Shown: piece by piece, positions 1-23,872 of the stretch
How positions within the stretch are numbered: position 1 is the stretch's first letter
Layout of the letters: each line of letters opens with the position of its first letter
Assembly: GCA_030040795.1 (NCBI GenBank)
Contig: JASHTA010000490.1
Span: 1-37,357, forward strand
DNA length: 37,357 bases
Direction of reading: 5' to 3'
From: Gammaproteobacteria bacterium
GTDB lineage: Bacteria > Pseudomonadota > Gammaproteobacteria > Steroidobacterales > Steroidobacteraceae
Made by a program: the position numbers and the translations under genes
The notes under the pieces: generated by a model
The model's database searches: none
Told to the model about the DNA's origin: nothing
The model's input: only the letters and a program-made list of their open reading frames with translations

Positions 1-318
1 AACCGGGATACGGCGTACGTCGTGTATCCTCATGTGCTCGATGGCCTGCGTGGCGTCTTCCTCGATCGAGGCAATGGCGACCGGCGCCCGCATGATGTCA
101 CGCACGGTCAGGGCCGCGGGGCTGCGCTCCTGGGCGAGCACCTCGACGACCAGGTCGCGGTCGGTGACGATTCCGAGCGGCGATCGGTCACCATCCGGAT
201 CGTCGACCACGACGAGATCTCCGACGTGGCGCTGGCGCATGAGCCGCGCCGCGGCGAGTACCGTCGTTTCGGGGCTGCAGCAGGCCGCGTCGGGCGTGCA
301 GATCTCTTTCAGCAACAT
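1..318 (-). CDS. CBS-domain pair protein (5' part; runs off the left window edge)
   Basis: Hand translation of the minus strand from ATG at 318-316 gives MLLKEICTPDAACCSPETTVLAAARLMRQRHVGDLVVVDDPDGDRSPLGIVTDRDLVVEVL...TVRDIMRAPVAIASIEEDATQAIEHMRIHDVRRIPV. These are typical tandem CBS motifs (hVGxLxVVD, GIVTDRDL, IHxVRRIPV). GGAGAG lies upstream of the ATG. It is not in the ORF track because no stop lies within the window. Confidence 0.8.
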   Translation of the reverse strand, partial: MLLKEICTPDAACCSPETTVLAAARLMRQRHVGDLVVVDDPDGDRSPLGIVTDRDLVVEVLAQERSPAALTVRDIMRAPVAIASIEEDATQAIEHMRIHDVRRIPV

Positions 319-379
319 GCTCGACTCTCCTCGACGAGGGGTTGTGCGCAACTTTCGCTGCCGATTGCGGTTCGCTCGC

Positions 380-1351
380 TCATTCGGCAAGCGCCTGAGC
401 GAGCCGAATCAGCCTCTCATCGAGAGGCTTGCGCCGGCCGATCACATCGCGAAGCGCCGTCGGCGTGACTTGTCCGTCGATCATTCCGAGCAATACTCCG
501 TGCCGTCCGGCTCGCAGCTGCTCGACGGCTGCCGTCCCGAGCAACGTCGCGGTCAAGCGGTCGAACGTGCAAGGGGAGCCCCCGCGCTGGACGTGTCCGA
601 GCTTGATCACGCGCAGCTCAAAGCCGAGACGCTCGGCGTGCTGGGTGAAATACTGCGAAAGGGCGTCGGCATTGCGCTCGGCGCCTTCCGCGATCACGAC
701 GATCGCGTGACTCTTGCCGCGCGCATAGGCCTCGCGAACGCTCGTGGCGATCTTCTCCGGGTCTTGCGGAATCTCGGGAATCACGATCGCCTCGGCGCCC
801 CCTGTGATTCCGGCGATGAGCGCGAGATACCCACACGTGCGTCCCATCAGCTCGACGAGGAATACTCGCCCGTGTGCCGATGCCGTGACGCGCAGCCGGT
901 CGATCGACTCGAGCGCAATATCGAGAGCGGTGGTCGCTCCAATCGTCACGTCGGAGCCGGGAAGATCGTTGTCGATCGTCGAGGCAACGCCGACCACCGC
1001 CACGCCGAGCGAGGCCAACGCATGCGCGCCCGCCTGCGAGCCGTTGCCGCCGATGACGACGAGGCCCGACACGTCCCGGTCGCGAAGTTGCCGCGCTGCC
1101 GCCTGCTGTCCCGGCTCGGTGAGAAAGGCGGGACAGCGGCTCGTGCCGAGCACGGTCCCTCCGCGCTGGATGATTCCGCCTACATCGCGTGCTCCGAGAG
1201 GGATGAAATCGCCCGCCATCAAGCCGGCGTAGCCGTGCCTCACGCCTAGCAGCTCGAATCCGAACGACACCCCGGTACGAACGACGGCTCGAATCGCCGC
1301 GTTCATTCCCGGCGCATCGCCGCCGCTCGTGAGGACTGCCACTCGCTTCAT
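380..1351 (-). CDS. pfkA: ATP-dependent 6-phosphofructokinase
   Basis: ORF 380..1444(-). Internal ATG at 1351 gives MKRVAVLTSGGDAPGMNAAIRAVVRTG. PFK motifs are GGDAPGMNAA, IGGNGS, TIDNDL and MGRTCGYLAL. The length of 323 aa is typical of PfkA. Confidence 0.9.
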   Translation of the reverse strand: MKRVAVLTSGGDAPGMNAAIRAVVRTGVSFGFELLGVRHGYAGLMAGDFIPLGARDVGGIIQRGGTVLGTSRCPAFLTEPGQQAAARQLRDRDVSGLVVIGGNGSQAGAHALASLGVAVVGVASTIDNDLPGSDVTIGATTALDIALESIDRLRVTASAHGRVFLVELMGRTCGYLALIAGITGGAEAIVIPEIPQDPEKIATSVREAYARGKSHAIVVIAEGAERNADALSQYFTQHAERLGFELRVIKLGHVQRGGSPCTFDRLTATLLGTAAVEQLRAGRHGVLLGMIDGQVTPTALRDVIGRRKPLDERLIRLAQALAE

Positions 1352-1367
1352 CGTCGAGCCTGCCGCC

Positions 1368-1670
1368 TCACCGGCTGTACCGGCGCGGCGCTGCACGTGT
1401 CGCAAGCCACTCGCGGATTTCGCGCTCGGCCGCGAGCCAGTCATCCATCTCGTGCCCGGCCTCGAATCCTCGTCGCTCGGCTTGGAAGTAGGCGGCCACG
1501 CGGATCATCTCCTCTTGCGCCTCGGCATCGATCGGTGCCTCTCCGTCGCGGAGCGCCGCCCCGCGTCCGCGTGCGCGATCCGATCCGGGTCGCGAGGAAG
1601 AGCGAGCCTGAGGGGCTGTCGAAGAAGAGTGAGCCTGAGAGGCTGTCATGTGGGGGGACGTCATGATCAT
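1368..1670 (-). CDS. Small DUF2934-type protein
   Basis: C-terminal part of ORF 1368..2024(-). ATG at 1670 gives MIMTSPHMTASQ. The core IRVAAYFQAERRGFEAGHEMDDWLAAEREI matches the DUF2934 signature (aYf.aE.RG...G...dDWl.AE.e). It lies 17 nt upstream of pfkA on the same strand. Confidence 0.6.
   Translation of the reverse strand: MIMTSPHMTASQAHSSSTAPQARSSSRPGSDRARGRGAALRDGEAPIDAEAQEEMIRVAAYFQAERRGFEAGHEMDDWLAAEREIREWLATRAAPRRYSR
1597..1647. repeat. In-frame 27-bp tandem duplication (two 24-bp cores separated by gaa)
   Basis: gaagagcgagcctgaggggctgtc / gaa / gaagagtgagcctgagaggctgtc. It encodes TA(S/P)QA(H/R)SSS twice in the N-terminal tail of the DUF2934 protein. Confidence 0.8.
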
Positions 1671-1743
1671 GATCTCCACCGGTACACATCGATGCGTCAA
1701 GATAGACTCGGCGCCGGATGCGCTGAATCGGGACTTGTGCGTA

Positions 1744-1766
1744 CCGTGCGGCCGAGATGTACGTAG
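1744..1766 (-). promoter_or_regulatory. Candidate shared regulatory box (CTACGTACAT-N6-CGCACGG read on the minus strand)
   Basis: Exact 10-mer plus downstream 7-mer also present upstream of ftsH (9637-9656). It sits about 90 nt upstream of the DUF2934-pfkA-CBS operon start, in the divergent region shared with the L,D-transpeptidase gene. Confidence 0.3.
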
Positions 1767-1824
1767 CGGGAAACGAGTGAGTGCCGATTCGATGCGGGGC
1801 GTGTGCAGGCATACTGCACGAGCG

Positions 1825-3555
1825 ATGATTCCCAAGGCGCTTCTCGCGATCCTGGCCGGCGTTTCCCTCACGGGCGCCTGCACCGCGAACTCGAGCCCCG
1901 TTCGCACGGCGATCGAGGCCGCAGTGGCGGACGCGGACATTTCCGGTTGCTCACGGGCCTCGCCGACTACGCTCGCAGCCGTGCCGCGCCGCGCGAAGCC
2001 CGATTGTCCGCGATCGCGAGACATCCACGGGTTGAGCGAGGCATTACGAAGAGTCTACGTCCGCAGCGGCGGCCATCCACTCTGGATCGACTCGCGCGGC
2101 CCCACACCGCAGGCGCTCGCTCTCCTTGCGAGATTGCGCGCCGCCGACGCCTACGGACTGCGACCGGAGGATTACCTGAGCCCGGCGCTGGCCAAGATCG
2201 CGGACCGTGCATCGGTCGACGCATCCGCGGGCACCGACCAGGCCGTTCGGCGGGCACAGTCCGATGTGGCGCTTTCCGCTGCGGCCCTGCGGATCGTGTC
2301 GGATCTGCATTTCGGACGCGTCGATCCGCGCGAGGCGGGCTTTCAGCTCGATACGCCGCGCCAACCCTTCGATCTCGCCGCCGCGGTGGAGCGGCTCTCC
2401 GTCGCGGAAGACGCCGGATCCGTCCTCGCAGCGATCGAGCCGCAGTTCTATCACTATCAGCTGCTCGAAGCGGCGCTCCGCCGCTATCGTGAGCTCTCGC
2501 AGCGGCCGGACCTCACGCGGCTTGCGCCGCTCGTCAGGCCCGTCAGGCGCGGTGAGATATACGCCGGCGCACCCGCGTTGCGAAGACTTCTCATCGCCGT
2601 AGGGGATCTGCCGGCGAGCGACGGCGCCGCCGCCGCGCCGAATCTGCGGTTCGACGCGCCCCTCGCCGGCGCGATCGCGAAGTTTCAGGCGCGCCACGGC
2701 CTTGCCCCGGACGGCGTCCTCGGAGAGGCGACGTACGCCGCGCTCACCACTCCCTTTGCGCATCGCGTGCGCCAGATCGAGCTCACGCTCGAGCGGTGGC
2801 GATGGCTGCCGGCCTTCGACAGCCCTCCGATCATCGTCAACATTCCGGAGTTTAGACTTTTCGCCTTCCGCTCCACCGCCGACCGAAAGGCGAGCATCCT
2901 GCAGATGGATGTGATCGTCGGGAAGAGCTACCCGAGATTTCAGACACCCGTCTTTGCGGCCGACATGACATACGTCGTCTTCCGCCCCTACTGGGACATT
3001 CCCTACAGCATCATGCGGCGCGAGATGCTTCCCTCGATTCGCGCGAACCCCGCGTACGTCGCCGAGCAGCACCTCGAGATCGTAGCGGGGCAGACCGATG
3101 CTGCGCCGGCACTACCGGTCACGGCGCAGAATATCGCGGCGCTCGCGGCCGGAAAGCTGCGCCTGCGGCAGCGGCCGGGTCCCGACAACGCACTCGGCCT
3201 CATCAAATTCATGCTTCCCAATCACTACAACGTCTATCTGCACTCGACGCCCGCGCATCAGCTGTTCAAGGAGCCGCGCCGCACCTTCAGTCATGGCTGC
3301 ATCCGGGTGAGCGATCCCGTCTCGCTCGCCGAGCACGTGTTGCGCAGTGCGGCCGGTGATTGGACCCGCGAGAAGATTCTCGCTGCGATGAACGGAGCCG
3401 CGACTCGGCGCGTGAGCCTGGCCAAACCCATCCGCGTGATGATCTTGTACGGCACGGTACTCGCCACCGAATCGGGCGACGTGCAGTTTTTCAACGACGT
3501 CTACGGCGGGGACAGGAAGCTAGAGGCGCTTCTTGGGCTCCCGCCGGAGAGTTAG
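1825..3555 (+). CDS. L,D-transpeptidase (YkuD domain) with peptidoglycan-binding domain, lipoprotein (YcbB/LdtD-like)
   Basis: ORF 1648..3555(+). MIPKALLAILAGVSLTGAC has a lipobox. The PG-binding motif is FQARHGLAPDGVLGEATYAAL. The YkuD catalytic motif is LHSTPAHQLF...FSHGCIRVSDP. An alternative in-frame ATG lies at 1792. Confidence 0.85.
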   Translation: MIPKALLAILAGVSLTGACTANSSPVRTAIEAAVADADISGCSRASPTTLAAVPRRAKPDCPRSRDIHGLSEALRRVYVRSGGHPLWIDSRGPTPQALALLARLRAADAYGLRPEDYLSPALAKIADRASVDASAGTDQAVRRAQSDVALSAAALRIVSDLHFGRVDPREAGFQLDTPRQPFDLAAAVERLSVAEDAGSVLAAIEPQFYHYQLLEAALRRYRELSQRPDLTRLAPLVRPVRRGEIYAGAPALRRLLIAVGDLPASDGAAAAPNLRFDAPLAGAIAKFQARHGLAPDGVLGEATYAALTTPFAHRVRQIELTLERWRWLPAFDSPPIIVNIPEFRLFAFRSTADRKASILQMDVIVGKSYPRFQTPVFAADMTYVVFRPYWDIPYSIMRREMLPSIRANPAYVAEQHLEIVAGQTDAAPALPVTAQNIAALAAGKLRLRQRPGPDNALGLIKFMLPNHYNVYLHSTPAHQLFKEPRRTFSHGCIRVSDPVSLAEHVLRSAAGDWTREKILAAMNGAATRRVSLAKPIRVMILYGTVLATESGDVQFFNDVYGGDRKLEALLGLPPES

Positions 3556-3556
3556 G

Positions 3557-3589
3557 GGGCGCTATATGGGCGCTATACGGGCTCTATAC
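3557..3589. repeat. 11-bp x3 tandem repeat GGGCGCTATAT/GGGCGCTATAC/GGGCTCTATAC
   Basis: Read directly. It fills the 28-nt gap between the convergent stop codons of the L,D-transpeptidase (3553-3555) and the BON gene (3584-3586), and overlaps the BON stop. Confidence 0.85.
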
Positions 3590-4237
3590 GCGGACCGTGA
3601 GCTCGTTTTTGACGCTGAGGACGCCAGGGGCCGCCCATGCCGCCTGCTGGGCCTGGTCGCGCTCGGCCCACGAGCGCACCTCTCCCCGCAATGTGACCTG
3701 CGAGCCGCTCGCATCGACATGAACGTGCTCTGCATCGATCACCGCATTGCGGCGAAAGGCTTCCTCGATCTTTTGCTTGACATCCGCACGCGTGCCTCTG
3801 TGCATGAGTTGAATGGAATTGCGCACGCTCACGACGCCGGCTACGCGGTGCACTGCGCTCTCGGCGCGCTCGCGCTGGTCGTGCCAATCGAGCGTACCCT
3901 CCAGGACGACTCTTCCGTCGTGGACGATCGGCTTGACGCGTTCCCAGCTCACCGGCAGCTCGAATTTGAGGGCTGCGACCGCATCGCGAGCGATTTCCGG
4001 ATCACTGCGGATCAAGTCCGTGGGCACGCGCACTTCGATGTCGTTCGCGACGGCAGCGACTCCTACGACGCGCTTGGCGGCTGCCTCGGCGCAGTACTTG
4101 TCGGGGTAGCGCGGCACGTAGCCCGTGAGCGTGACGACTCCTCCATTGACCTTCACGGCGATGTCCTTCTCATTCACGTCCGGCGTCCATCGAAGCTCGG
4201 TCTCCACGTCCCGCTGGGTATCGCTATCGGTTCTCAT
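3584..4237 (-). CDS. BON-domain protein (three BON domains, OsmY-like)
   Basis: C-terminal 217 aa of ORF 3584..4600(-). ATG at 4237 is preceded by AGGAGG. The BON pattern appears three times: DIAVKVNGGVVTLTGYV, VKPIVHDGRVVLEGTL and VHVDASGSQVTLRGEV. It lies 38 nt downstream of groEL on the same strand. Confidence 0.85.
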   Translation of the reverse strand: MRTDSDTQRDVETELRWTPDVNEKDIAVKVNGGVVTLTGYVPRYPDKYCAEAAAKRVVGVAAVANDIEVRVPTDLIRSDPEIARDAVAALKFELPVSWERVKPIVHDGRVVLEGTLDWHDQRERAESAVHRVAGVVSVRNSIQLMHRGTRADVKQKIEEAFRRNAVIDAEHVHVDASGSQVTLRGEVRSWAERDQAQQAAWAAPGVLSVKNELTVRV

Positions 4238-4275: not shown

Positions 4276-5895
4276 TCACATCTCCGCCTCGGCGGGCGTG
4301 TGCTCCTTCGGTCTCTCGGGCTTCTCCGTCATCGTGGCCTCGGTGAGCATCAGCGTGGTCGCGACCGAGACGGCGTTCTCGAGCGCGGTACGCACGACTT
4401 TGACGGGATCGATGATCCCCGCCTCGACGAGGTCGACGAACTGCTTGCGCGCCGCATCGAATCCGATGTTTCCGGTGCCGCTCACCATACGATCGACCAC
4501 CACGCCTCCGTCGGCCGCAGAGTTCTCCGCGATCTGCCGAGTGGGCGCCTCGAGCGCACGACGCAGGATCTGTAGGCCCGTGCGCTCGTCGCCGGAGCAC
4601 TCGGCCTCCACAGCGCTTACGGCGCCGATCGAGCGCAGCAGCGCGAGGCCGCCACCCGGCACGATGCCCTCTGCGACCGCCGCCTTGGTCGAGCTGATGG
4701 CATCGTCGAGCGCCTCCTTCTTGGCCTTCATCTCCGATTCGGAAGGAGCACCCACACGGATGACCGCGACACCGCCGGAGAGCTTCGCGAGGCGCTCCTC
4801 GAGCTTCTCGCGGTCGTAATCGCTCGTCGTCTTCTCGAGCTCCTTGCGGATCATCTGGATGCGCCCGTCGATGTCGCGCTTGTTGCCCGCCCCGCCGATG
4901 ATCGTCGTGTTGTCCTTGTCCACCACGATTCGCTTTGCGCGTCCGAGCTGCCCGAGCTCCACATCCTCGAGCTTCAGGCCGAGTTCTTCGGAGATGACCT
5001 GCGCGCCCGTGAGAATCGCGATGTCCTGCAACATGGCCTTGCGGCGATCGCCGAATCCGGGCGCCTTCACCGCCGCGCTTTTCAGCACGCCGCGGATCTG
5101 ATTGACGATGAGGGTCGCGAGCGCCTCACCTTCGATCTCCTCGGCGATGAAGAGGATCGGTTTGCCCGCCTTGGCCACCTGCTCGAGAAGCGGCAGGATG
5201 TCCTTGATGATGTTGAGCTTGCGATCGCACACCAGCACGTACGCCTCTTCCAGCACGGCCTCCATCGCGCCCGGGTCCGTCATGAAGTAGGGTGAGAGAT
5301 AACCACGGTCGAACTGCAAGCCCTCGACCACCTCGAGGGTCGTCTCGGTGGTCTTGGACTCCTCGACGGTAATGACCCCGTCGCCTCCGACCTTCTCCAT
5401 GGCATCGGCGACGAGATCGCCGATCACCGGATCGTTGTGCGCGGAGACGGTGGCGACCTGGGCCTTCTCCTTGCGGCTTGCGACCGGTTTGGCCATCGCC
5501 TTGAGGGCCTTGACGGCAGCCTCGAGTCCCCGATCGAGGCCGCGCTTCAGGTCGATCGCGCTCGCTCCGGCGGCGACATTCCGCACGCCATCCGAGTAGA
5601 GGGTCTGGGCGAGAATCGTCGCCGTGCTGGTGCCATCGCCAACGACATCTCCCGTCTTCTCCGCCGCTTGGCGCAGCATCTGGGCGCCGAGGTTCTCCTC
5701 CGGGTCCTCGAGCTCCATCTCCTTGGCGATGGTGACCCCGTCGTTGCAAACGATCGGAACGCCCCATTTCTTTTGAATGAGCACGGATTTTGATTTGGGT
5801 CCCAAGGTGATGCGCACCGCATCGGCGAGCTGCGCGGCCCCGCGCAGCACCTTCTCGCGCGCGGCGGATCTGAAAAGGACCTGTTTCGCGGTCAT
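4276..5895 (-). CDS. groEL: Chaperonin GroEL (Cpn60) paralogue
   Basis: [40 protein letters not shown]...[11 protein letters not shown]...[12 protein letters not shown]. Full length is 539 aa. The C terminus is ...[18 protein letters not shown] with no GGM repeats. Confidence 0.95.
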
Positions 5896-6172
5896 GGCAT
5901 TGCTCCGTCGTAGCTCGATCTCGACCGCCGTGGGCTCGAGCGGCTCGAGTCGTCCGAATTTTCATCGAGCGTCCCCGCCGGGCGCCATACGCACTTTTCG
6001 CAAGCCGCACGGCACGAAAGCGCTCGGCGGTGCGAGCGTCGCCGTGCTGGGACAATCCCCTATTGCGGTGCGGATGATGCGACTGCCGCAACGGTTCGGG
6101 GACTGAGAGCCTATCGCTCGGCGGAGTGTGTATCCGCAAGCGTTCGATGGAGGAGCCGCTCGCGGTTCAACA

Positions 6173-16770: not shown

Positions 16771-17833
16771 CGACCAACTGTCCCGGATAAAGATGGAGGG
16801 TCTTCGGGTTCTGGAACCGGAAGATGACCGGCAGCACGCGCACGTCGACCAGCTCCTGGCGCTCGTTGGAGAGCTCGATCTTCGGGGAGATGTAGGGCTG
16901 CACGCGCACGAAGGTGAGCGGCACGCGATCGTTGGTGCCGCGAATGAACATCTCGGCCTGCACCTTCGGGGCGCTCGGCAGCTCGTGAACGAGGATCTCG
17001 TCGATATATGCCCGCACCTCGAGATGGCCTTGCGGCTTGCCCATGACGATGAGCGGATCGAGCCCTTGCGTGTACGAGTCGTACGCGCCCTGCGTCGAGA
17101 CGTAGCTGCCCGCGGTCGCCTCAACGGCGAGCACGACGCCATCGGAAGGCGCGCGGATGGTGTACTTGGCGAGCAGCGCGGCCGCCGCCAGATAGGACTT
17201 CTGCAGCGAAGTGTAGGTCCTCTCCTGGTTCTCGATGTCGTAAATCCACGCTCCCGCTTTCGTGAGCAGGTATTGCTTGTTGACGACCTCGAGGTTGGTG
17301 GCCGCGATGCGCTCCGCGTTGATGGCGTTGTCGAGATCGTTCTTGCTGACGGACTTCGGGTCCATCTCGTAGGAGCGCTGCTCTTTCGACAGCTGATCGC
17401 GCGCGTTCTTGAGCGTCGCGCGGGCGTTGTCCACCTGGGCCGCTGACACCGCGAGAGTCTCGGTACGCGGCTCGGCCTTCAGCTCGTGCAGCATCGTGAG
17501 AGCCGCCTCGGCCTGCGCTTGCAGCTGCTCGGCCGTGGCACGCTGAACGGAATCGTCGATCCTGACGAGCGGATCGCCCTGGTGCACCGCCTGACCCTCG
17601 GAGATGAGGACCTGTGTCACCGGGCCCGGCACCTCCGGGTAGATGTTGATGTTCTCGCCCTGATCCTGATCGCTCTCGATCATGCCTTCGGAGTAGATGC
17701 CGTGCGGATAGGGGCTGGCCGTCGGATTGAAGACCGGCGGTTGGGGTTTCGCCTGCCGGCTGAAGATGAAGGCGCTCACGAGCGCGAGCGTGAGTCCGAG
17801 ACCTGCGGCGATGAAGATGATCCTATTGTGCAT
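16748..17833 (-). CDS. HlyD-family periplasmic adaptor (membrane fusion protein, DevB-like)
   Basis: ATG at 17833 gives [24 protein letters not shown] (N-terminal TM). It has a lipoyl-like segment VTQVLISEGQAVHQGDPLVRID, a long coiled-coil and a beta-barrel tail. It overlaps the ATPase gene end by 11 nt. Confidence 0.8.
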   Translation of the reverse strand: MHNRIIFIAAGLGLTLALVSAFIFSRQAKPQPPVFNPTASPYPHGIYSEGMIESDQDQGENINIYPEVPGPVTQVLISEGQAVHQGDPLVRIDDSVQRATAEQLQAQAEAALTMLHELKAEPRTETLAVSAAQVDNARATLKNARDQLSKEQRSYEMDPKSVSKNDLDNAINAERIAATNLEVVNKQYLLTKAGAWIYDIENQERTYTSLQKSYLAAAALLAKYTIRAPSDGVVLAVEATAGSYVSTQGAYDSYTQGLDPLIVMGKPQGHLEVRAYIDEILVHELPSAPKVQAEMFIRGTNDRVPLTFVRVQPYISPKIELSNERQELVDVRVLPVIFRFQNPKTLHLYPGQLVDVYVKSQ

Positions 17834-18524
17834 CGAGCTCGCTCCGTTCAACGCCGGTTACCCGGCCGTCTTCCATTTTTAGGATGCGGTCGGCGAATTC
17901 GTAGATACGGCTGTCGTGTGTCACGATCACGATGCAGCGCTTGTCGGACAGCAGGTGCTCGCGGACGAACTGGACGATGGTGCGTCCGGTATCTCCGTCG
18001 AGCGAGGCGGTCGGCTCGTCGAAGATCATGATGTCGGGCCGGCTGATGATGGCGCGCGCGATCGCGACCCGCTGCTGTTCGCCGCCGCTCAGCTTGACCG
18101 GAGGAAGCCGGGCGCGGTTCTCGAGCCCCACCACTTCGAGGTCGCGCCGCGCCTCGGAGAGCGCCTCGTCCCAGTCCCGGTGCTGCAGAATGAGCGGAAG
18201 CGCGACATTCTCCGCGGTCGTCAGGCGCGGGAAGAGGTGATAGTCCTGAAACACGAAGCCGATCCTCCGCAGCCGGAACTCGGCGAGGGCGTCGGCGGCG
18301 AGGCTCCAGATGTCCGCGCCTTCGATCGTCACCGCGCCCGAATCGGGGCGCAGGATTCCGGAGATCATGCTAAGCAGGGTGGTCTTGCCGCTCCCGGAGG
18401 GGCCGACGACGTAGACCATCTCACCGAAGTTCGCCTCGAAGTTCACGTCCTTCACCGCATGGGTCCGAGCTTCACCCTCGCCGAACCACTTGTTGATGCT
18501 CGTCGCCTGGATCGCCGTCGTCAT
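17823..18524 (-). CDS. ABC transporter ATP-binding protein (DevA/MacB-ATPase-like)
   Basis: ATG at 18524 gives [24 protein letters not shown]. Walker A is GPSGSGKTT, the signature is [14 protein letters not shown] and Walker B is IMIFDEPT. It starts 2 nt after the permease stop (TGAccATG). Confidence 0.9.
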
Positions 18525-18526
18525 GG

Positions 18527-19678
18527 TCAGCCCCGGAAGATGTCGAACGGTTCGATGAGCAGGACCTTGCGGACGCCGAAGTAGCTCGAGGAGGCGGCGA
18601 TGATGACGACCATCACGAAGGCGAGTCCGAGGTTGAGGAACGTGATCATCGCCGCGTAGTCGGGCAGGTGAGCGCGCGCGAGCCAGATGAGGAGTGCGCA
18701 AAGGCCGACCCCGAATCCGTATCCCGTCAGGGCGACGAAGGTCGCCTGGAAGAGAATCATCGAGACGAGCTCTCGGGACTTCGCGCCGATCGCCTTCAGC
18801 GCCCCAAAGCGGTCGATGTTCTCGAGGATGAACGTATAGAACGTTTGGCCCGAGATCGAGAGCCCGACGATGAAGCTGATGAGCGTCATGAGCAGCATGT
18901 TGGTGCCGATCCCCGTCTGATACATGTAAAACCTCGAGATCTTGCTCATGAACTCGTCCTTGGTGAGGGCGAGGTAGCCGTCTGCGGCGACGCGCTCCTT
19001 GATTGCTGCCACGTCGGCCGGCGTTTTGGGCTCGACGAGGATGTAGGAGATCGTAAACCGCGTGTTCGGGATGTATTGGAGCGCCCGGTAGTAAGTCGTA
19101 TAGAGCGTCGGGACGCCGAACAGGGAGCTCGAGGAGACGCGCGCGAGTCCGACGATCTTGCCGCGATGGTCGTTCAGCTCGAACTCGGTGCCGATGTGCG
19201 GGCTCTCGAGCTTGTAGAACTCGGAATCCTCGATGGCGATGAAGGCGTTCTCCGCGAAGATGTCCTGGATATTCCCGGCGACCATCTGAGGGCTGCCGAT
19301 GAGGCTCGTGTCGTCGAGTCCGACGATGTTCGCAGCCTGGTAGCTGCCGTCGCGCAGCTTGAGCAGCGCGCTGCCGGAGTACAGCGGTACCGCATATTTG
19401 ACGCCCGGAAGACTGCGCACCTCATCGAGCACGTAATTGGGCAAGGGGATGGCATTTGCGACCGTCTGAACGGAAGGATCCATCACCCAGATCGAGGCGC
19501 CGATGTTGATGACCGTGGCGGACGAGCGCATCAGAATGCCGGCAAAGAGCGACGTCATTTCGATCATCAGGAAGACGGCGAAGGTGATCCCGACGAGCAG
19601 CGCCGCGAACTTCGTGCGGTCGTTGACCAGCAGCTTATAGGCGATGCGGAGGATCCCGCTCTGCAGCTCGAGAATCAT
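18527..19678 (-). CDS. ABC exporter permease, DevC/FtsX-MacB-type (4 TM with large periplasmic domain)
   Basis: ATG at 19678 gives MILELQSGILRIAYKLLVNDRTKFAALLVGITFAVFLM. TM1 is followed by about 200 aa of extracytoplasmic domain, then a three-TM FtsX-like C terminus. The alternative GTG at 19717 seems less likely. Confidence 0.8.
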   Translation of the reverse strand: MILELQSGILRIAYKLLVNDRTKFAALLVGITFAVFLMIEMTSLFAGILMRSSATVINIGASIWVMDPSVQTVANAIPLPNYVLDEVRSLPGVKYAVPLYSGSALLKLRDGSYQAANIVGLDDTSLIGSPQMVAGNIQDIFAENAFIAIEDSEFYKLESPHIGTEFELNDHRGKIVGLARVSSSSLFGVPTLYTTYYRALQYIPNTRFTISYILVEPKTPADVAAIKERVAADGYLALTKDEFMSKISRFYMYQTGIGTNMLLMTLISFIVGLSISGQTFYTFILENIDRFGALKAIGAKSRELVSMILFQATFVALTGYGFGVGLCALLIWLARAHLPDYAAMITFLNLGLAFVMVVIIAASSSYFGVRKVLLIEPFDIFRG

Positions 19679-19873
19679 TCGAAGCCCGCTCTTTCGATCG
19701 ATGTCAGGCGCGAGCACGCACGAGGCTCACGATGCCGGCGATGTTGGCAGTCGCAGCGGCGGCAGACGATACGAATTTGTGCGTAGCGAGCGGCGGAAAA
19801 TGCGGGCAATGTGCGGCAATCAGGGCATGTACGCATTCGGTGAGCCGGCGGGGACGGGTAGATTGCAGGATGC

Positions 19874-22591
19874 ATGAGCCGCCGCAACCTCGAGCACCTG
19901 TTCAACCCGCGCTCCATCGCGTTGATCGGAGCCTCCGATCGGCCGCATTCCGTCGGAGCGACGGTGATGCGCAATCTTCTCGGCGCCGGATTCGCAGGTC
20001 CTGTGTGGCCGGTCAACCTGCGGCATGCGGTCGTGGCAGGCCGGCGCGCCTATTCGAGCGTGGCGGAGCTGCCGGAAGCGCCGCAGCTTGCGGTCATTTG
20101 TACGCCGGCGCCCGGTATTCCGGCGCTCATTTCAGAGCTCGGAGCGCGCGGCACCCGTGCGGCGATCGTCATCAGCGCCGGCCTCGAGGAAAGGGTCGGC
20201 GGCACGACTCTTGCGACCGCGATGCTCGAGGCCGCGCGGCCGTTCACGCTGCGCATCCTCGGCCCGAACTGCATCGGGCTGCTCGTGCCCGGCATCGGCC
20301 TCAATGCAAGCTTCGCTCACGTCGGAGCCCGCAAGGGGCCTCTCGCGTTCATCGCCCAGTCGGGTGCGCTCACGACCGCGATGCTCGACTGGGCGGATGC
20401 GCAGGGCATCGGGTTCTCCCACTTCATCTCGCTCGGCAATGCCGCCGATGTGGATTTTGGAGATCTGCTCGACCATCTCGCTCGGGACGGCGAGACTCGG
20501 GCGATTCTGCTCTACATCGAGGCGGTGACCGCCGCGCGCAAGTTCCTCTCCGCCGCGCGGACCGCTGCGCGCAACAAGCCGGTGATCGTCGTGAAGTCCG
20601 GTCGGACGAGCGCATCCGCGCTTGCGGCGCGCTCGCACAGCGGGGCGCTCGCGGGAGCGGACGCGGTCTACGATGCGGCTTTCCGGCGGGCGGGCATTTT
20701 GCGGGTGGGCGCGACGCGAGAGCTCTTCGATGCGGCGGAGATCCTCGCGCGGCTGAAGCCCTACGCGGGTCCACGACTCGCCATCGTCGGAAACGGCGGC
20801 GGTCCGGGTGTGATGGCAACCGATGCGCTCACCGGCTGCGGCGGCCACCTCGCGGAGCTCGGCGCCGAGACGCTGCGGAGACTCGATGCGGTCTTGCCGG
20901 CCTCGGGGTCCCGTGCCAATCCGCTCGATCTCGGCGGCGATGCGCGACCGGAGCGATACGTCGCGGCGCTCGGCGCGGTGCTCGAGGACCCCGAGATCGA
21001 TGCCGTGCTCGTGATCCACGCGCCGACGGCGGTCGCGTCGGTGGAAGAGGTGGCTACCGCGTGTGTTCCGGTTCTTTCACGGGCTCGTCGGCCCGTCCTT
21101 GCTTGCTGGATGGGACGCGAGGGCGATGCCGCCGCGGCCTCCGTCGCGGCCGACGTGCCCGTCTATTCCACGCCGGAGGAAGCCGTCGGCGCCTTCGTGC
21201 ACGTGGCGCGCTACCACGAGAGTCAGGCGCTCCTTCTTGAGGCGCCCGCGTCGATCCCGGAGTTCGTGCGTGACGTCTCGGCAGCGCGTGCAATCTTGGC
21301 TGCCGCCTCGAAGGAAGGCCGTCCCGTGCTGACCGAGCCGGAGGCCAAGGGCGTTCTTGCCGCGTATGGCGTGCCGATCGTCGAGACCCGCATCGCGGGC
21401 GGTATCTCGGAGCTCGCGGACGCGGCGCAGAGCCTCGGCTACCCGATCGTGCTGAAGATTCTCTCCCCGGATATCTCTCATAAGTCCGATGTGGGCGGCG
21501 TCGCCCTCGACATCGAGACACCGGAGGCGCTCCAGCGCGCGGCTGCCGCCATGCTCGCGAGGTGTCGCGAGCTCGCGCCGGACGCGCGCATCGAGGGCTT
21601 CACGGTCCAGCAGATGATTCGCCGCGGCGGCGCGCACGAGCTCATCGTGGGTATGACTGTCGACTCCACGTTCGGCCCGACGATCGTGTTTGGACAAGGT
21701 GGAACGGCCGTCGAGGTCATCGCAGACCGAGCCCTCGCCCTGCCGCCGCTCAACGCCATACTCGCGCGCGATCTGATCTCCCGGACTCGCGTGTCCCGTG
21801 TGCTCACCGGTTACCGCGATCGACCCGCCGCCGACCGGGCTGCGCTCGAGCAGACACTCGTGAAGCTGTCGCAGCTTGTCGCCGATCTGCCCGAAGTGGC
21901 GGAGCTCGATATCAACCCGCTGCTCGCGGACGAGCACGGCGTGCTCGCGCTCGATGCGCGCATCCGTATCGATGCGGCCGCGGCCCCTGGCACGGAGCGC
22001 TTCGCGATCCGGCCGTACCCCTGCGAGCTCGAGGAACGCGCCGACTTCGGCGGCCGCAGGATTCTGCTGCGCCCCATTCGACCGGAGGACTTCGATCAGC
22101 ACCGCAGATTCCTCGGCGCGATCGCCGCAGAGGACCTTCGCGCGAGATTCTTCGCGGCCCTGCGGCAGGTGCCGCAGCGTGAGCTCGCCTACCTCACGCA
22201 GATCGACTACGACCGCGAGATGGCCTTCATCGCCGAGACTCCAGGGCAAAGCGCCGCCGCACTCGGCGAGAGCACGCGTAAGGAGACGCTGGGAGTGGCC
22301 CGGGCGTGCACCGATCCCGAGAATCTCGAGGCGGAGTTTGCGGTGCTCGTCCGCTCGGATCTGAAGGGCCGTGGCCTGGGAGCTCTGCTGCTCGATAAGC
22401 TGATTCGTTACTGTCGCGAGCGCGGCACACGGCGGATGGTCGGCCAGACGCTGAGCGCAAACGCCCGGATGCTGAAGCTTGCCTCGGCGGCGGGGTTCCG
22501 CATCGAGCAGAAAGAGGGCGGGCTCTGCGAACTGACTTGTGAACTGCGCGGTGCGGCTAGGCGTGACGTGCGCGGCACAGATATCCCTTAG
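19874..22591 (+). CDS. Pat/PatZ-type protein lysine acetyltransferase (ADP-forming acetyl-CoA synthetase-like domains fused to C-terminal GNAT)
   Basis: 905 aa. The N terminus is MSRRNLEHLFNPRSIALIGASDRPHSVGATVMRNL (CoA-binding). The central part is succinyl-CoA-synthetase-like plus ATP-grasp. The C-terminal GNAT has FAVLVRSDLKGRGLGALLLDKLIRYCRERG (acetyl-CoA binding R-x-x-G-x-G/A). Confidence 0.85.
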   Translation: MSRRNLEHLFNPRSIALIGASDRPHSVGATVMRNLLGAGFAGPVWPVNLRHAVVAGRRAYSSVAELPEAPQLAVICTPAPGIPALISELGARGTRAAIVISAGLEERVGGTTLATAMLEAARPFTLRILGPNCIGLLVPGIGLNASFAHVGARKGPLAFIAQSGALTTAMLDWADAQGIGFSHFISLGNAADVDFGDLLDHLARDGETRAILLYIEAVTAARKFLSAARTAARNKPVIVVKSGRTSASALAARSHSGALAGADAVYDAAFRRAGILRVGATRELFDAAEILARLKPYAGPRLAIVGNGGGPGVMATDALTGCGGHLAELGAETLRRLDAVLPASGSRANPLDLGGDARPERYVAALGAVLEDPEIDAVLVIHAPTAVASVEEVATACVPVLSRARRPVLACWMGREGDAAAASVAADVPVYSTPEEAVGAFVHVARYHESQALLLEAPASIPEFVRDVSAARAILAAASKEGRPVLTEPEAKGVLAAYGVPIVETRIAGGISELADAAQSLGYPIVLKILSPDISHKSDVGGVALDIETPEALQRAAAAMLARCRELAPDARIEGFTVQQMIRRGGAHELIVGMTVDSTFGPTIVFGQGGTAVEVIADRALALPPLNAILARDLISRTRVSRVLTGYRDRPAADRAALEQTLVKLSQLVADLPEVAELDINPLLADEHGVLALDARIRIDAAAAPGTERFAIRPYPCELEERADFGGRRILLRPIRPEDFDQHRRFLGAIAAEDLRARFFAALRQVPQRELAYLTQIDYDREMAFIAETPGQSAAALGESTRKETLGVARACTDPENLEAEFAVLVRSDLKGRGLGALLLDKLIRYCRERGTRRMVGQTLSANARMLKLASAAGFRIEQKEGGLCELTCELRGAARRDVRGTDIP

Positions 22592-23028
22592 GTCGCGATC
22601 GTCAGGTCGTTTCGCACGCCTACGACGCCGCCCACGCGGTGCACCGCGTTCTCCGCGGCTTCGCGCTGATATTGCCACTCGAGCGTACCCGCGAGGACGA
22701 CATAGCCGCTGTCCACAAGCACTTGCACCTTCTCCCACGCCGTGGGCAGTTCGCGCTTGAGAGCAGCAACCGTCTCCCGCGCGATCTGCGGATCGGTTGC
22801 GGTGCTCCCCGGAGGCGGTCGGACGGCGAGGTCGTTCGCCATGCCGCGCACGCCCTCGACGCGCTTCGCGACTGCTTCGGCTCTGTACTTCTGGACGTCG
22901 CTTGGCACGAAGCCGGTGAGCGTTGCCACACCGTCCGTGACCTTCACGGCGATGTCAGTGTGGTCCACGTCCGGTCTCCGTTGCAGCTCCGCTTGGATGT
23001 CGCGCTCGATTTCGTGATCGGCTCTCAT
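22588..23028 (-). CDS. BON-domain protein (two BON domains), paralogue of 3584-4237
   Basis: MRADHEIERDIQAELQRRPDVDHTDIAVKVTDGVATLTGFVPSDVQKYRAEAVAKRVEGV... aligns by eye along its whole length with the first two BON domains of the 3584-4237 protein. Its ATG overlaps the hpf stop (ATGA). Confidence 0.85.
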   Translation of the reverse strand: MRADHEIERDIQAELQRRPDVDHTDIAVKVTDGVATLTGFVPSDVQKYRAEAVAKRVEGVRGMANDLAVRPPPGSTATDPQIARETVAALKRELPTAWEKVQVLVDSGYVVLAGTLEWQYQREAAENAVHRVGGVVGVRNDLTIAT

Positions 23029-23399
23029 TGATCGATTCTCCCATATGGAGACCTGCGCACGCTGGCGTTGGGCTTTGGCCGCTGCTTGCGTACGTGATCC
23101 TCGAGCTTGCGGCGCGCGGCATCAAACGCGTCCCGCAGCGCCACGTAGGGATCCTCGTGCGCGTGATCGCGCGGTCGCACATTTCCGGTCGAGATCTCCC
23201 CGCGCGGGAGCGCGATGATGACTCGCACGCGAAAGAGCGTACCCTGATGCCGGCGATGCGACGATGACTCGACGACCACACGGCAGCTCGTGATGCGGGA
23301 GCTGAACTTCTCGAGCCGTTGAGCGAGCGCGCCGATGCGCGCCCCCATGGCAGCCGAAGGCTCGATGTTGCGGAACGTGATCTGCAGCGGCACCTTCAC
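23025..23399 (-). CDS. hpf: Ribosome hibernation promoting factor / RaiA-family ribosome-associated protein (short form)
   Basis: The start is GTG. MKVPLQITFRNIEPSAAMGARIGALAQRLEKFSSRITSCRVVVESSSHRRHQGTLFRVRVIIALPRGEI...DPYVALRDAFDAARRKLEDHVRKQR follows the HPF/YfiA pattern (l.itg.n.e.t.alr.y...k..kL.k....i....V.l). The start overlaps the USP stop (GTGA). Confidence 0.75.
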   Translation of the reverse strand: MKVPLQITFRNIEPSAAMGARIGALAQRLEKFSSRITSCRVVVESSSHRRHQGTLFRVRVIIALPRGEISTGNVRPRDHAHEDPYVALRDAFDAARRKLEDHVRKQRPKPNASVRRSPYGRIDQ

Positions 23400-23872
23400 T
23401 GGGTGCTTCCCGTTCCGGACAGTTGCGGTGGGGCCGCGCGAACCAACAGCACGGGCACAGGGCTATGTCTCACGATGTATTCCGCATCGCTGCCCATCAG
23501 CATCCGGCGCAGGCCGCGGCGGCCGTGAGTGCCGCAGACGATCAGTGACGCCGGCCAGGATATGGCTTCCTTCACGACGATCTCCCCCGCATCAGTGCCG
23601 ATCGCCTCGATCAGGCGGGAGTCGACATCGACACCCTCGTCGCGAGCGTCGGCAATGGCCTCGTGAATGAGGCTCTCGCCCGTGCCACGCAGTTCGTCGA
23701 CGAGGTGCTGAAGCACAGTGAGATCGACCGCTGGGGAGACCCACGGCGCCTTGTTGATGACGTGCACCAGGAGCATACGGCTGCCGAGACTGCGAGCGAG
23801 GCGGGTCGCTTCGGCGAGTCCCATGCGGGCGGCGTCGCTACCGTCGATCGCCACAAGAATGTTGGGGTACAT
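23396..23872 (-). CDS. Universal stress protein (single UspA domain)
   Basis: MYPNILVAIDGSDAARMGLAEATRLARSLGSRMLLVHV...LIVCGTHGRRGLRRMLMGSDAEYIVRHSPVPVLLV carries the canonical G-x2-G-x9-G-S ATP-binding motif. Confidence 0.9.
   Translation of the reverse strand: MYPNILVAIDGSDAARMGLAEATRLARSLGSRMLLVHVINKAPWVSPAVDLTVLQHLVDELRGTGESLIHEAIADARDEGVDVDSRLIEAIGTDAGEIVVKEAISWPASLIVCGTHGRRGLRRMLMGSDAEYIVRHSPVPVLLVRAAPPQLSGTGSTQ

Follow-up and report, generated by a model that had tools for sequence, protein, structure and literature searches.

Positions 1–23,872 of the window (the whole stretch of 37,357 nucleotides analyzed here, from an uncultured soil gammaproteobacterium whose closest named relatives are in the Steroidobacteraceae) are completely tiled by called genes. 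Gene families were assigned with Pfam, and with NCBIfam models and their cut-offs for selected proteins, in a scan of 30 proteins of the window. At the left edge, three genes on the minus strand encode a CBS-pair protein (1–318; CBS, E = 1e-17; start codon at 318, C-terminus cut by the window edge), a 323-aa PfkA-type ATP-dependent 6-phosphofructokinase (PFK; 380–1351; E = 4.5e-100; 376 bits against a cut-off of 253 for NF002872), and a 46-aa DUF2934 protein (1368–1508; E = 6e-14). On the full contig (L001/L015), the CBS-pair protein is 149 aa long and is followed by a second CBS protein; the operon is DUF2934-PFK-CBS-CBS, headed by the DUF2934 gene. A YcbB/LdtD-like L,D-transpeptidase with Scaffold, PG_binding_1, and YkuD domains is called on the plus strand (1648–3555); its true start is likely at 1828, at a predicted lipoprotein-type signal peptide, MIPKALLAILAGVSLTGAC. 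A 217-aa protein with three BON domains (3584–4237, minus; E = 2e-41 over three stretches) lacks an N-terminal signal peptide, and its gene lies 38 nt downstream of groEL (4276–5895, minus; Pfam and NCBIfam) in the same orientation. These are followed by genes for a 628-aa AMP-forming acyl-CoA ligase of long-chain or FadD11-like type (6173–8059, plus; AMP-binding and AMP-binding_C_3, with all NCBIfam matches under their cut-offs), a 163-aa Host_attach protein of baeRF family 12 (8096–8587, minus), a 292-aa tandem universal stress protein (USP; 8718–9596, plus; Usp in two stretches), and the 675-aa AAA+ Zn metalloprotease FtsH (9692–11719, plus).

The 3′ end of ftsH overlaps by 71 bp with the convergent gene for an 810-aa PEP synthase (pyruvate, water dikinase; 11649–14081, minus; NCBIfam equivalog, 1153 bits against a cut-off of 598). 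A gene for a 348-aa Zn-dependent alcohol dehydrogenase (Zn-ADH; 14219–15265, minus; ADH_N and ADH_zinc_N) is the last of an operon that otherwise encodes, in four genes, a MacB-type tripartite exporter (15262–19717, minus): an FtsX/MacB_PCD permease (18527–19717), an ABC ATPase (17823–18524), an HlyD adaptor (16748–17851), and an OEP outer-membrane factor (15262–16770). The 905-aa Pat/PatZ-type protein lysine acetyltransferase (19874–22591, plus; CoA_binding_2, Succ_CoA_lig, ATP-grasp_5, and Acetyltransf_1) has an NDP-forming acyl-CoA synthetase-like region and then a C-terminal GNAT domain. On the minus strand, a final operon is headed by the gene for a single-domain USP (23396–23872; E = 3.7e-29) with the ATP-binding motif G-x2-G-x9-G-S, and continues with genes for a 124-aa short HPF/RaiA-family ribosome hibernation factor (23025–23399; Ribosomal_S30AE, E = 1.6e-13) and a 146-aa protein with two BON domains (22588–23028).

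The per-protein HMM search bore out the families that a sequence-only reading had proposed for the CBS, PFK, both BON, groEL, acyl-CoA ligase, Host_attach, FtsH, PEP synthase, Zn-ADH, Pat-type acetyltransferase, HPF, and USP genes, and the BON/BON paralogue pair it had named is 57% identical by tblastn. That mostly correct list had missed six genes (about 6.5 kb), those for the L,D-transpeptidase, the DUF2934 protein, and the four-gene exporter, and it had counted three USP genes with four domains; positions 1–23,872 hold just two, with three domains, and tblastn revealed no third. The fermentative metabolism it had seen was read from PFK and Zn-ADH only, and no pyruvate-dissimilating enzyme is present at the locus. 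PEP synthase is as a rule gluconeogenic and is at odds with a fermentative reading.

The groEL gene was correctly described as lacking groES: no Cpn10 match occurs among the 30 window proteins, and the upstream neighbor is the divergent acyl-CoA ligase gene. The GroEL C-terminus has no GGM repeat tail, and the protein scores higher with GroEL of Thermus, Chlorobaculum, and Paracoccus than with that of E. coli; orthologues at 86–94% identity carry the name Steroidobacteraceae. FtsH reaches 775 bits with the NCBIfam FtsH_fam model and 587 bits, against a cut-off of 1008, with the E. coli-type model, and is 60% identical to copies on secondary replicons of Burkholderia and Cupriavidus. Judged from their sequences, neither GroEL nor FtsH is of the E. 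coli or gammaproteobacterial housekeeping type.

An AlphaFold model of the Host_attach protein (pLDDT 79) matches structures of Balon best (8v9l, 8v9j, and 8rd8), followed by aRF1, eRF1, and Pelota. As modeled, the protein is a single-domain relative of this ribosome hibernation factor, and its assignment to a baeRF family agrees. Balon homologues, hypoxia-induced Rv2629 among them, inhibit translation (Helena-Bueno et al. 2024, PMC10901736), and baeRF-1 genes show linkage to those for HPF (Burroughs and Aravind 2019, PMC6514570). The association described in these two studies is seen here in that an HPF/RaiA gene belongs to the same cluster, but it is 14.4 kb from the Host_attach gene and not adjacent. 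Unlike Balon (about 360–375 aa), the 163-aa protein consists of the central domain only. It has neither the N-terminal decoding-site domain nor the C-terminal domain, and therefore not all of Balon's contacts with the ribosome and EF-Tu are possible.

The cluster extends beyond the window. On contig JASIKP010000097.1 it continues for about 20 kb past the left edge, so the 24-kb extent first given to it reflects the window and its left boundary was the edge itself; positions 1–23,872 make up the right-hand half of a cluster that spans at least about 44 kb. On the right, the boundary near 23.9 kb stands, as genes at 24–37 kb have a different theme (VOC, GH3, SnoaL, PQQ dehydrogenase, GDSL lipase, ECF sigma, AraC, and GSDH). 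Leftward from the edge are genes for the second CBS protein, a methyltransferase, cytochrome c, hybrid kinase 1, and an AAA_33/APH kinase; then two tandem USPs, glycogen phosphorylase, phosphoglucomutase, a P-type ATPase, a CRP-family regulator, and hybrid kinase 2; and, leftmost, cytochrome c, a short kinase with a response regulator, HSP20, and PPK2. Genes for the FixL-type kinase, FixJ-like regulator, and CRP-family regulator are a few kb apart. The observation that no regulator or sensor lies in the window is literally true but stems from where the window ends: genes for sensors and regulators are located 5–17 kb past its left edge on the same contig. Control from outside, as had been concluded, misplaces regulators that belong to the cluster.

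Both hybrid kinases have PAS domains that match the haem domains of FixL (E = 3e-17 and 9e-16) and of DosP. In both, the proximal His200 is aligned, as in the FixL-type PAS domain of the FixL-FixJ-FixK oxygen-response cascade of rhizobia and Caulobacter, including hybrid FixL variants; Arg206 is retained in the second kinase. In both, however, the distal, O2-binding Arg220 of FixL is Leu, and therefore NO, CO, or redox state could take the place of O2 as the ligand. They also differ from FixL in that they are hybrid kinases with a receiver at the C-terminus, and the C-terminal half of each is similar to the NahK/ErcS family, with scores under its cut-off. The response regulator has the receiver and GerE domains of FixJ and is nearer to FixJ (E = 8.5e-46) than to DevR (E = 1.5e-12). 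Like FixK, the CRP-family regulator lacks the FNR-type Cys cluster, but its recognition helix is RVVVGR instead of the E-x2-SR type. The intergenic regions of the window and of relatives contain no FNR/Anr/FixK box (TTGA-N6-TCAA, at most one mismatch), and the putative targets are stress genes rather than the cbb3 oxidase or nif/fix genes of FixLJ-FixK.

Six operons of the window share a hexamer, TGCGTA, 82–118 nt upstream of the start codon and in the orientation of the gene. It precedes groEL by 98 nt (5988–5993, minus; within a block, AAGTGCGTATGGCGC, that is also kept in L018 and L022), the PEP synthase gene by 105 nt (14181–14186, minus), the Pat-type gene by 94 nt (19780–19785, plus), the exporter operon by 118 nt (19830–19835, minus), and the USP-HPF-BON operon by 82 nt (23949–23954, minus). 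The sixth copy (1738–1743, plus) lies 90 nt ahead of the likely ykuD start, which was set to 1828 only after the motif had been noticed. TGCGTA is the top hexamer (nominal p = 2.8e-10, a value reached in 0 of 400 shuffles) with a frequency-normalized, position-restricted statistic, and only with that statistic is it significant; with two cruder tests, P was 0.21 and 0.53. The motif is short, has no recognizable partner element, and is absent from promoters of the left extension. Its confinement to six operons in the window half suggests that the cluster comprises more than one regulon.

Seven related metagenomic contigs (L017, L018/L019, L020, L021, L022, L025, and L026) carry the gene set again, around the orthologue of groEL or of the Host_attach gene. 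Conservation of the neighborhood applies to the set and not to gene order, which is shuffled and different in every relative. Small DUF2934 genes are in the clusters of L018, L020, L021, and L022, the L,D-transpeptidase gene in L018 and L022, and the Pat-type gene in L020; a BON gene adjoins or is near groEL in L017, L018, L021, and L022. The relatives add class II ribonucleotide reductase (RNR), a beta-CASP RNase, phosphoribosyltransferase, a P-type ATPase, and, as a pair, a CRP regulator and a FixL-like kinase. Similar sets are on a chromid of Cupriavidus oxalaticus (AAA_33/APH kinase, FtsH, erythromycin esterase, GroEL, NAPRTase, BON, nitroreductase, PhaC, USP, and PEP synthase) and a plasmid of Bosea (GroEL, host attachment proteins, three USPs, phosphoribosyltransferase, ADH, Pta, and BON). 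The clustering of these families is beyond chance, given that relatives have them together again.

Among known loci, content overlaps with lxa of Burkholderia cenocepacia J2315 (BCAM0275a–BCAM0323), which is induced by low oxygen and required for anoxic survival, and whose published inventory (Sass et al. 2013, PMC3721108) has the same categories: several USPs, a pair of BON proteins given as "phospholipid-binding", a Zn protease that depends on ATP, an exporter of ABC/HlyD/OMP type, Zn-ADH, and cytochrome c. Both are multioperon chromosomal clusters of about 45–50 kb with no compositional island signature, and share several single and tandem USPs, two BON proteins, an extra ATP-dependent Zn protease, an ABC/ABC/HlyD/OMP exporter (the MacB-type set here is of the same type as BCAM0302–0305; PMC3721108), Zn-ADH, cytochrome c, alpha-crystallin, a P-type ATPase, and a CRP-family regulator with two-component systems; class II RNR and a metallo-beta-lactamase RNase, which lxa also has, are here in the clusters of relatives. 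Orthologous synteny is absent, and the best Burkholderia match of FtsH (60% identity) adjoins PEPCK, phospholipase, and OsmC genes, not an lxa context. The cluster also differs in having no Anr-like TGA-N6-TCA motif and a PfkA-type instead of a PfkB/ribokinase PFK. GroEL, HPF, Host_attach, CBS proteins, Pat, PEP synthase, L,D-transpeptidase, and glycogen phosphorylase are not listed for lxa, whereas its PHA synthesis and acetate kinase/Pta genes are absent from the stretches read here.

The DosR (DevR) dormancy regulon of Mycobacterium tuberculosis includes tandem USPs, alpha-crystallin, the CBS-pair protein Hrp1, a P-type ATPase, phosphofructokinase, and class II RNR, and is controlled by haem-based sensor kinases. 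It also includes the HPF/RaiA homologue Rv0079 and the Balon homologue Rv2629 (PMC10901736) and the phosphotransferase Rv2004c (PMC8701281). All have functional parallels here: the AAA_33/APH protein is set against Rv2004c, class II RNR is found in relatives, and haem-based sensing is predicted from PAS similarity. Nevertheless, the phylum differs, the DosR regulon is scattered whereas these genes form a single cluster, the sensors DosS/DosT are GAF-haem kinases rather than PAS-haem hybrids, and no DosR box was found.

A competing explanation is a general stationary-phase, osmotic, or desiccation stress cluster, triggered in soil by starvation, drying, or heat instead of oxygen, with the haem-PAS kinases reading another signal (NO or redox state) or controlling only part of the cluster. 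USP, BON, HPF, GroEL, and FtsH also respond to heat, osmotic, and stationary-phase stress, and the OsmY-like BON proteins, USPs, HPF, HSP20, GroEL, and FtsH are classical general-stress proteins. Genes of the Balon family occur in heat, osmotic, and acid stress operons besides hypoxia ones (PMC10901736). The loss of Arg220, the absence of an FNR/FixK box, and the restriction of TGCGTA to one half fit as well. Against this are the two FixL/DosP-type PAS domains with haem-ligand His and the FixJ-like and CRP-family regulators within the cluster, its three cytochrome c genes, the oxygen-independent class II RNR of relatives, and the item-by-item overlap with low-oxygen-induced lxa. We regard this explanation as unlikely, though it is the strongest of those that compete.

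A horizontally acquired mobile island of the heat-resistance (tLST/LHR) type, serving against proteotoxic stress, is very improbable. Like tLST/LHR, the cluster has an accessory FtsH and small heat-shock proteins; accessory ftsH genes on plasmids of Shinella and Agrobacterium are about 71% identical in nucleotides over part of the gene, the Shinella copy, a weak nucleotide match, is in a transposase-flanked Hsp20/AAA ATPase/FtsH/TrxC/antiporter cluster, and related sets are on the Bosea plasmid and Cupriavidus chromid. But the window and contig stretches read lack a ClpK-type AAA protein, a triple sHSP array (or any sHSP array beside ftsH), and a thioredoxin/KefB/DegP module, and integrase, transposase, and tRNA genes are likewise absent; the remaining gene content is quite different, and G+C is 62–70% throughout, as in the flanks. 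The 86–94% identity of GroEL over many Steroidobacteraceae-type contigs indicates long vertical residence. Just as hard to credit is a chance neighborhood of unrelated, partly housekeeping genes with a theme only in the reader's eye: gene order varies among relatives, PFK, PEP synthase, ADH, and acyl-CoA ligase are ordinary metabolic enzymes, and groEL and ftsH may be housekeeping copies, but families co-recur at two independent anchors (groEL and Host_attach) in seven contigs and two other proteobacterial classes, GroEL lacks groES, a GGM tail, and gammaproteobacterial type, and six operons have an upstream element in common.

The gene cluster is real and is a fresh example of an already known kind of locus. 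We favor, at a probability of roughly 65%, a chromosomal low-oxygen or energy-limitation survival program of the same kind as lxa and the DosR and FixLJ-FixK regulons. The core of the sequence-only reading, a dedicated growth-arrest or low-oxygen module resembling lxa and DosR, is supported by the recurrence of the set, including in Cupriavidus and Bosea, by the lxa categories, by the FixL/FixJ/CRP-type genes, and by TGCGTA at six operons; its extent and its view of control did not hold, and the fermentative metabolism is doubtful.

From these similarities we infer a signal, regulatory wiring, and physiological roles for this survival program. The two hybrid kinases with FixL-like haem-PAS domains, encoded just left of the window, would respond to declining O2, or to some related signal (gas or redox), and the FixJ-like response regulator and CRP-family regulator would then switch the operons on. 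Translation may be shut down and protected by the short HPF and the single-domain Balon-like Host_attach protein, while USP and CBS proteins could tune metabolism through nucleotide binding. The groES-less GroEL, the FtsH paralogue, and the HSP20 that is encoded left of the window would keep the proteome usable, and the L,D-transpeptidase, BON proteins, and MacB-type exporter would remodel the envelope. Stored glycogen may provide a trickle of ATP and redox balance via glycogen phosphorylase, phosphoglucomutase, and PFK; Zn-ADH may serve as an NAD+ sink, and acyl-CoA ligases would be restrained by the Pat-type acetyltransferase.

The genes at 1-23872 of the window probably belong, judging from their predicted products, to a dedicated cluster for growth arrest and low-oxygen survival, and this cluster is larger than the sequence-only reading held, with its own sensors and regulators. 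Because G+C is ~65% along the entire window, genes were picked by codon-position G+C and then checked against Pfam; 20 genes fill the first 23.9 kb, with hardly any unused sequence. On the minus strand are a CBS-pair protein truncated by the window edge (1-318), a PfkA-type phosphofructokinase (380-1351), a 46-aa DUF2934 protein (1368-1508), a three-BON protein (3584-4237), GroEL (4276-5895), a Host_attach/baeRF12 protein (8096-8587), PEP synthase (11649-14081), a long operon for an FtsX/MacB permease, ABC ATPase, HlyD adaptor, outer-membrane factor and Zn-ADH (19717 down to 14219), and a USP-HPF-BON operon (23872 down to 22588). The plus strand has a YcbB-like L,D-transpeptidase (ykuD; 1648-3555), an AMP-forming acyl-CoA ligase (6173-8059), a tandem USP (8718-9596), FtsH (9692-11719) and a Pat-type acetyltransferase (19874-22591). 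The phosphofructokinase and PEP synthase also score above NCBIfam cut-offs. In the 905-aa Pat-type protein, the Pfam domain order is CoA_binding_2, Succ_CoA_lig, ATP-grasp_5 and Acetyltransf_1, which joins an NDP-forming acyl-CoA synthetase-like N-terminal region and a C-terminal GNAT domain in one protein, the arrangement that characterizes Pat/PatZ.

Nearly all families named from sequence alone are present by Pfam where they had been placed. The count of three USP genes with four domains in 1-23872 is too high, as there are two genes with three domains; tblastn with both USPs found nothing further and no untiled space is left. Six genes that suit the theme had been overlooked. Four encode the exporter, which is of the kind found in lxa, the low-oxygen-activated locus of Burkholderia cenocepacia; the others, for the L,D-transpeptidase and DUF2934, recur in the clusters of relatives. 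Genes ftsH and PEP synthase are convergent and their 3' ends overlap by 71 bp at 11649-11719, a segment encoding the low-complexity C-terminal tail of FtsH. Directly before the annotated start of the ykuD ORF, 1600-1647 holds two tandem copies with a 27-bp period (GAGCGAGCCTGAGGGGCTGTC GAAGAA GAGTGAGCCTGAGAGGCTGTC), and in MAGs the ykuD product exists in versions of 635 and 642 aa, set apart by a 7-aa indel. Beyond 24 kb the theme is different (VOC, GH3, SnoaL, PQQ dehydrogenase, GDSL lipase, an ECF sigma/anti-sigma pair, AraC and GSDH). A 311-aa ORF (25252-26187, plus strand) flanked by the VOC and GH3 glycosidase genes matches no Pfam family and probably carries a signal peptide. The ECF sigma and anti-sigma factors form an operon with a small membrane protein (32481-33694, minus strand) 9 kb right of the cluster, to which no link was found. 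Rfam detected no RNA families in the window.

Base 1, taken earlier as the left boundary, is merely the window edge, and the cluster runs further left on contig JASIKP010000097.1 (56.8 kb), one of the Gammaproteobacteria MAG contigs to which exact protein matches assign the window. Leftward, this contig encodes a second CBS protein, a methyltransferase and a cytochrome c, followed by a PAS-HisKA-HATPase-receiver hybrid kinase, an AAA_33/APH/Zeta-type kinase and two more tandem USPs. Next are glycogen phosphorylase, phosphoglucomutase and a P-type cation ATPase, then a CRP-family regulator with a second PAS hybrid kinase and a further cytochrome c; after these come a short histidine kinase and a receiver-GerE response regulator, then HSP20 and PPK2. 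These genes bring the cluster to at least about 44 kb. Control had been expected to come from outside the window or through shared upstream motifs; no dedicated sensor or regulator of the cluster is visible in the window, but both kinds are encoded in the left extension. Neither the window nor the contig stretches read contain a tRNA, integrase or transposase, and G+C is flat. The locus is a functional cluster and no recognisable mobile island. The AAA_33/APH/Zeta-type kinase is a recurrent 510-552-aa protein combining APH, Zeta_toxin-like and AAA_33 matches (L027:14748-16406, on the contig left of the window; L008:14858-16390; L020:5307-6911, near a groEL orthologue, where the copy has AAA_33 alone). 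It has no NCBIfam match and, by analogy, may parallel the phosphotransferase Rv2004c of the mycobacterial dormancy (DosR) regulon.

By similarity, the parts of a FixL-FixJ-FixK-like cascade are present. The PAS domains of both hybrid kinases match FixL haem domains of Bradyrhizobium and Sinorhizobium (phmmer, E 3e-17 and 9e-16) as well as E. coli DosP. His200, the proximal haem ligand, is aligned in both kinases, which are predicted to bind haem. Arg206 is retained in the second kinase, and distal Arg220, which couples O2 binding to kinase control in FixL, is Leu in both. The response regulator (L027:1064-1690) consists of Response_reg and GerE domains and matches FixJ (PDB 5xso, E 8.5e-46), StyR (E 7.5e-56) and DevR/DosR (E 1.5e-12), so that in sequence it is far nearer FixJ than DevR/DosR. 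The CRP-family protein has the recognition helix RVVVGR and lacks cysteine, and therefore cannot hold an FNR-type cluster. Its DNA targets must differ from those of FixK, FNR and Anr, since boxes of these regulators (TTGAT-N4-ATCAA or TTGA-N6-TCAA, at most one mismatch) are absent from intergenic regions of the window and six related loci. NtcA-type GTA-N8-TAC sites, suggested by the Val in the recognition helix, were not found either.

Six operons of the window (ykuD, groEL-BON, PEP synthase, Pat, exporter-ADH and USP-HPF-BON) share the hexamer TGCGTA, pointing gene-ward, 82-118 nt before their start codons. Two crude family-wise tests, in which GC-rich words dominate, failed for that reason to reach significance (P 0.21 and P 0.53). 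In a third test, with hexamers normalised by expected frequency and limited to a 40-nt positional window, TGCGTA ranked first of all hexamers (nominal p 2.8e-10) and 0 of 400 dinucleotide shuffles were as extreme. The ykuD start was moved to 1828 on signal-peptide grounds after the motif had already been seen. The hexamer is short, lacks a partner element and is absent from promoters of the left extension; its copy upstream of groEL is inside a block conserved in two relatives. Taken together, the case that at least these six operons are co-regulated is good but not conclusive.

Other upstream elements were considered. By eye, spacings around TGCGTA are unsuitable for sigma-54 or ECF-type -35/-10 readings. 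Generic palindromes with 5-bp arms common to intergenic regions were GC-rich noise only, and unnormalised k-mer sharing was dominated by GC-rich words. Exact copies of the word GTTGCGGCA are found only before groEL and USP1, overall not above chance. Between the VOC gene and USP-HPF-BON operon, ~30 nt upstream of the TGCGTA of that operon, is a perfect 21-bp palindrome (23979-23999; TTCCGGGATACAGGCCCGGAA) with 7-bp arms and a 7-bp spacer, whose outer bases are reminiscent of the DosR box; as a shared element, TTCCGGG-N7-CCCGGAA was rejected because it is single copy across the window and related loci. A second conserved block upstream of groEL, GCGGCAGTCGCATCATCCGCACCGCAATAGGGGATTGTCCC (about 6050-6092, minus strand), is common to one related groEL contig (L018) and in part to another (L022), precedes the TGCGTA block by a distance that varies, and holds a TTGCGG...CCGCAA inverted repeat and the near-palindrome GGGGATTGTCCC.

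Soil metagenomes contain many orthologues of GroEL with 86-94% identity, the named ones being Steroidobacteraceae. We compared the neighbourhoods of five GroEL and two Host_attach orthologues. Common to them, in varying order, are BON, DUF2934, USP, CBS, PFK, and PEP synthase or PPDK_N proteins; they also carry L,D-transpeptidase, a Pat-type enzyme, AAA_33 kinase, glycogen phosphorylase, Host_attach, FtsH, acyl-CoA ligase, cytochrome c and P-type ATPase, and the CRP regulator adjoins a FixL-like hybrid kinase. Extra genes encode class II ribonucleotide reductase, beta-CASP RNase, phosphoribosyltransferase and NAPRTase. More distantly, a Cupriavidus oxalaticus chromid has AAA_33/APH kinase, FtsH, erythromycin esterase, GroEL, NAPRTase, BON, nitroreductase, PhaC, USP and PEP synthase, and a Bosea plasmid has a lone groEL, host-attachment genes, three USPs, phosphoribosyltransferase, ADH, Pta and BON. 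Because families recur in differing orders, the expectation of a conserved neighbourhood holds for the gene set and not for gene order. A scan of a genome collection with Host_attach found only one near relative, the closest species representative there, which retains just the Host_attach and acyl-CoA-ligase pair, and megablast against plasmids and chromids found no close relative, only gene-sized matches at 70-77%. In one Steroidobacteraceae MAG (L025:8365-10477), a 539-aa groEL and Host_attach gene are adjacent and co-oriented with a 16-nt gap, the closest linkage seen for these two genes. In another relative (L026:11740-15078), the cluster PFK is cut to 174 aa beside an IS21-type IstB/transposase pair and phage-like genes.

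The cluster had been likened to lxa and to the DosR regulon. Locus lxa encodes six USPs, two phospholipid-binding (BON) proteins, an ATP-dependent Zn protease, an ABC/ABC/HlyD/OMP set, Zn-ADH, cytochrome c, alpha-crystallin, P-type ATPase, class II RNR, a metal-dependent RNase, CRP/Anr regulators and two-component systems (Table 4 of PMC3721108). The cluster likewise has USPs, BON proteins, an extra Zn protease, an ABC/HlyD/OMP exporter, ADH, cytochrome c and alpha-crystallin, and it too encodes a CRP regulator and two-component systems, so the overlap in kind, based on predicted families, is extensive. Among Burkholderia, too, the gene set of lxa is kept and its order is not (PMC3721108). However, the Anr/FNR-like lxa motif (TGA-N6-TCA inverted repeat) is missing from intergenic regions of the cluster, and several hallmark genes are of a different family, including PfkA here versus PfkB in lxa. 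When all window proteins were searched by tblastn against 41 kb around the best Burkholderia match, only FtsH (60%) and an ABC ATPase (41%) matched. That FtsH match, in B. multivorans, was rejected as a bridge to lxa because its neighbours (PEPCK, phospholipase, OsmC and OtsA) are unrelated. On these grounds, the predicted genes do not belong to lxa by orthology or synteny.

Resemblance to FixLJ-FixK extends to the proximal His in PAS and the FixJ-type response regulator, but not to distal Arg220, and the CRP-family protein is not accompanied by FixK boxes in promoters. Functional parallels of the same sort exist with the DosR regulon, but its kinases DosS/DosT have GAF-haem domains whereas those of the cluster have PAS domains, the regulators appear FixL/FixJ-like rather than DosS/DosR-like, and the only DosR-like palindrome (23979-23999) occurs once. 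A tLST/LHR heat-resistance locus is dismissed because the window and contig stretches read have no sHSP-ClpK-sHSP core, Trx, KefB, DegP or mobility genes, FtsH and one distant HSP20 being the only components seen. A weak nucleotide match to ftsH on a Shinella zoogloeoides plasmid (L024) is in a cluster with Tn3 and IS21 elements on its flanks that encodes three Hsp20 proteins, PsiE, MarR, FtsH, a large AAA ATPase, a sigma factor, HdeD, ClpP, TrxC and an antiporter; this island resembles a heat-resistance locus, and its content is unrelated to that of the window cluster.

Canonical GroEL ends in a Gly-Gly-Met tail. The GroEL of the cluster lacks this tail, its gene has no groES upstream, and in PDB it scores higher against GroEL of Thermus, Chlorobaculum and Paracoccus than against that of E. 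coli, even though it comes from a gammaproteobacterial host. In NCBIfam, FtsH satisfies the general FtsH model, is far under the cut-off of the E. coli-type model, and is encoded outside the usual ftsH context. Together, these features argue for GroEL and FtsH being paralogues or xenologues.

Two proteins would act on translation. HPF (Pfam PF02482, E 1.6e-13, residues 5-107 of 124) is the short S30AE form without the C-terminal dimerisation domain. The Host_attach protein belongs to baeRF family 12 (Pfam E 6e-26). Members of the baeRF-1 clade are linked to HPF genes and were proposed to inhibit translation noncatalytically (Burroughs and Aravind, PMC6514570); the hibernation factor Balon and its hypoxia-induced mycobacterial homologues Rv2629 and Msmeg1130 occupy the A-site and inhibit translation (Helena-Bueno et al., PMC10901736). 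An AlphaFold model of Host_attach (36 homologues, pLDDT 79, disordered loop at residues 39-75) has 8v9l, 8v9j and 8rd8 as best Foldseek matches (probability 1.00, query TM 0.56-0.62), structures of Msmeg1130 and of the Balon of P. urativorans; aRF1, eRF1 and Pelota rank below them. The model covers about 45% of the length of Balon (target TM 0.27-0.28). With 163 aa and the central domain only, the protein is modelled as a member of the aeRF1-like central-domain fold family and does not have the three-domain architecture with which Balon reaches the decoding centre and binds EF-Tu.

We tentatively propose, at a probability of roughly one in four for the whole, that Host_attach is a minimal Balon-type factor acting alongside a dormancy-specialised, groES-less GroEL, under a FixL-like relay that works via TGCGTA. 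The single-domain protein would occupy the ribosomal A-site/peptidyl-transferase region without decoding-site or EF-Tu-binding domains, with the short HPF of the cluster as its partner. The groES-less GroEL, which travels with Host_attach in clusters of Steroidobacteraceae, Bosea and Cupriavidus, would be the chaperonin of the dormant state. The hybrid-kinase relay would drive the whole set through TGCGTA, a hitherto undescribed promoter element, and not an FNR/FixK box.

Clusters of this type enable strict aerobes such as Burkholderia and Mycobacterium to survive anoxia. The main idea of the sequence-only reading, a dedicated growth-arrest and probably low-oxygen cluster, is supported by the recurrence of the gene set in relatives and by the regulators inside the cluster. 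The cluster is not new in kind and opens no new category. Its modest novelty lies in a groES-less GroEL, cytoplasmic BON proteins and a single-domain Balon relative that travel tightly together, in the apparent FixL-like hybrid-kinase wiring without FixK boxes, and in the TGCGTA element. The groES-less GroEL, BON proteins, Balon relative, HPF, Pat-type enzyme and L,D-transpeptidase make a compact, testable list of partners that could aid in assigning functions to Host_attach/baeRF12, DUF2934 and cytoplasmic BON proteins, families of which little is understood. Conservation across abundant uncultured soil Steroidobacteraceae suggests that the strategy is widespread in soils that alternate between oxic and anoxic conditions.
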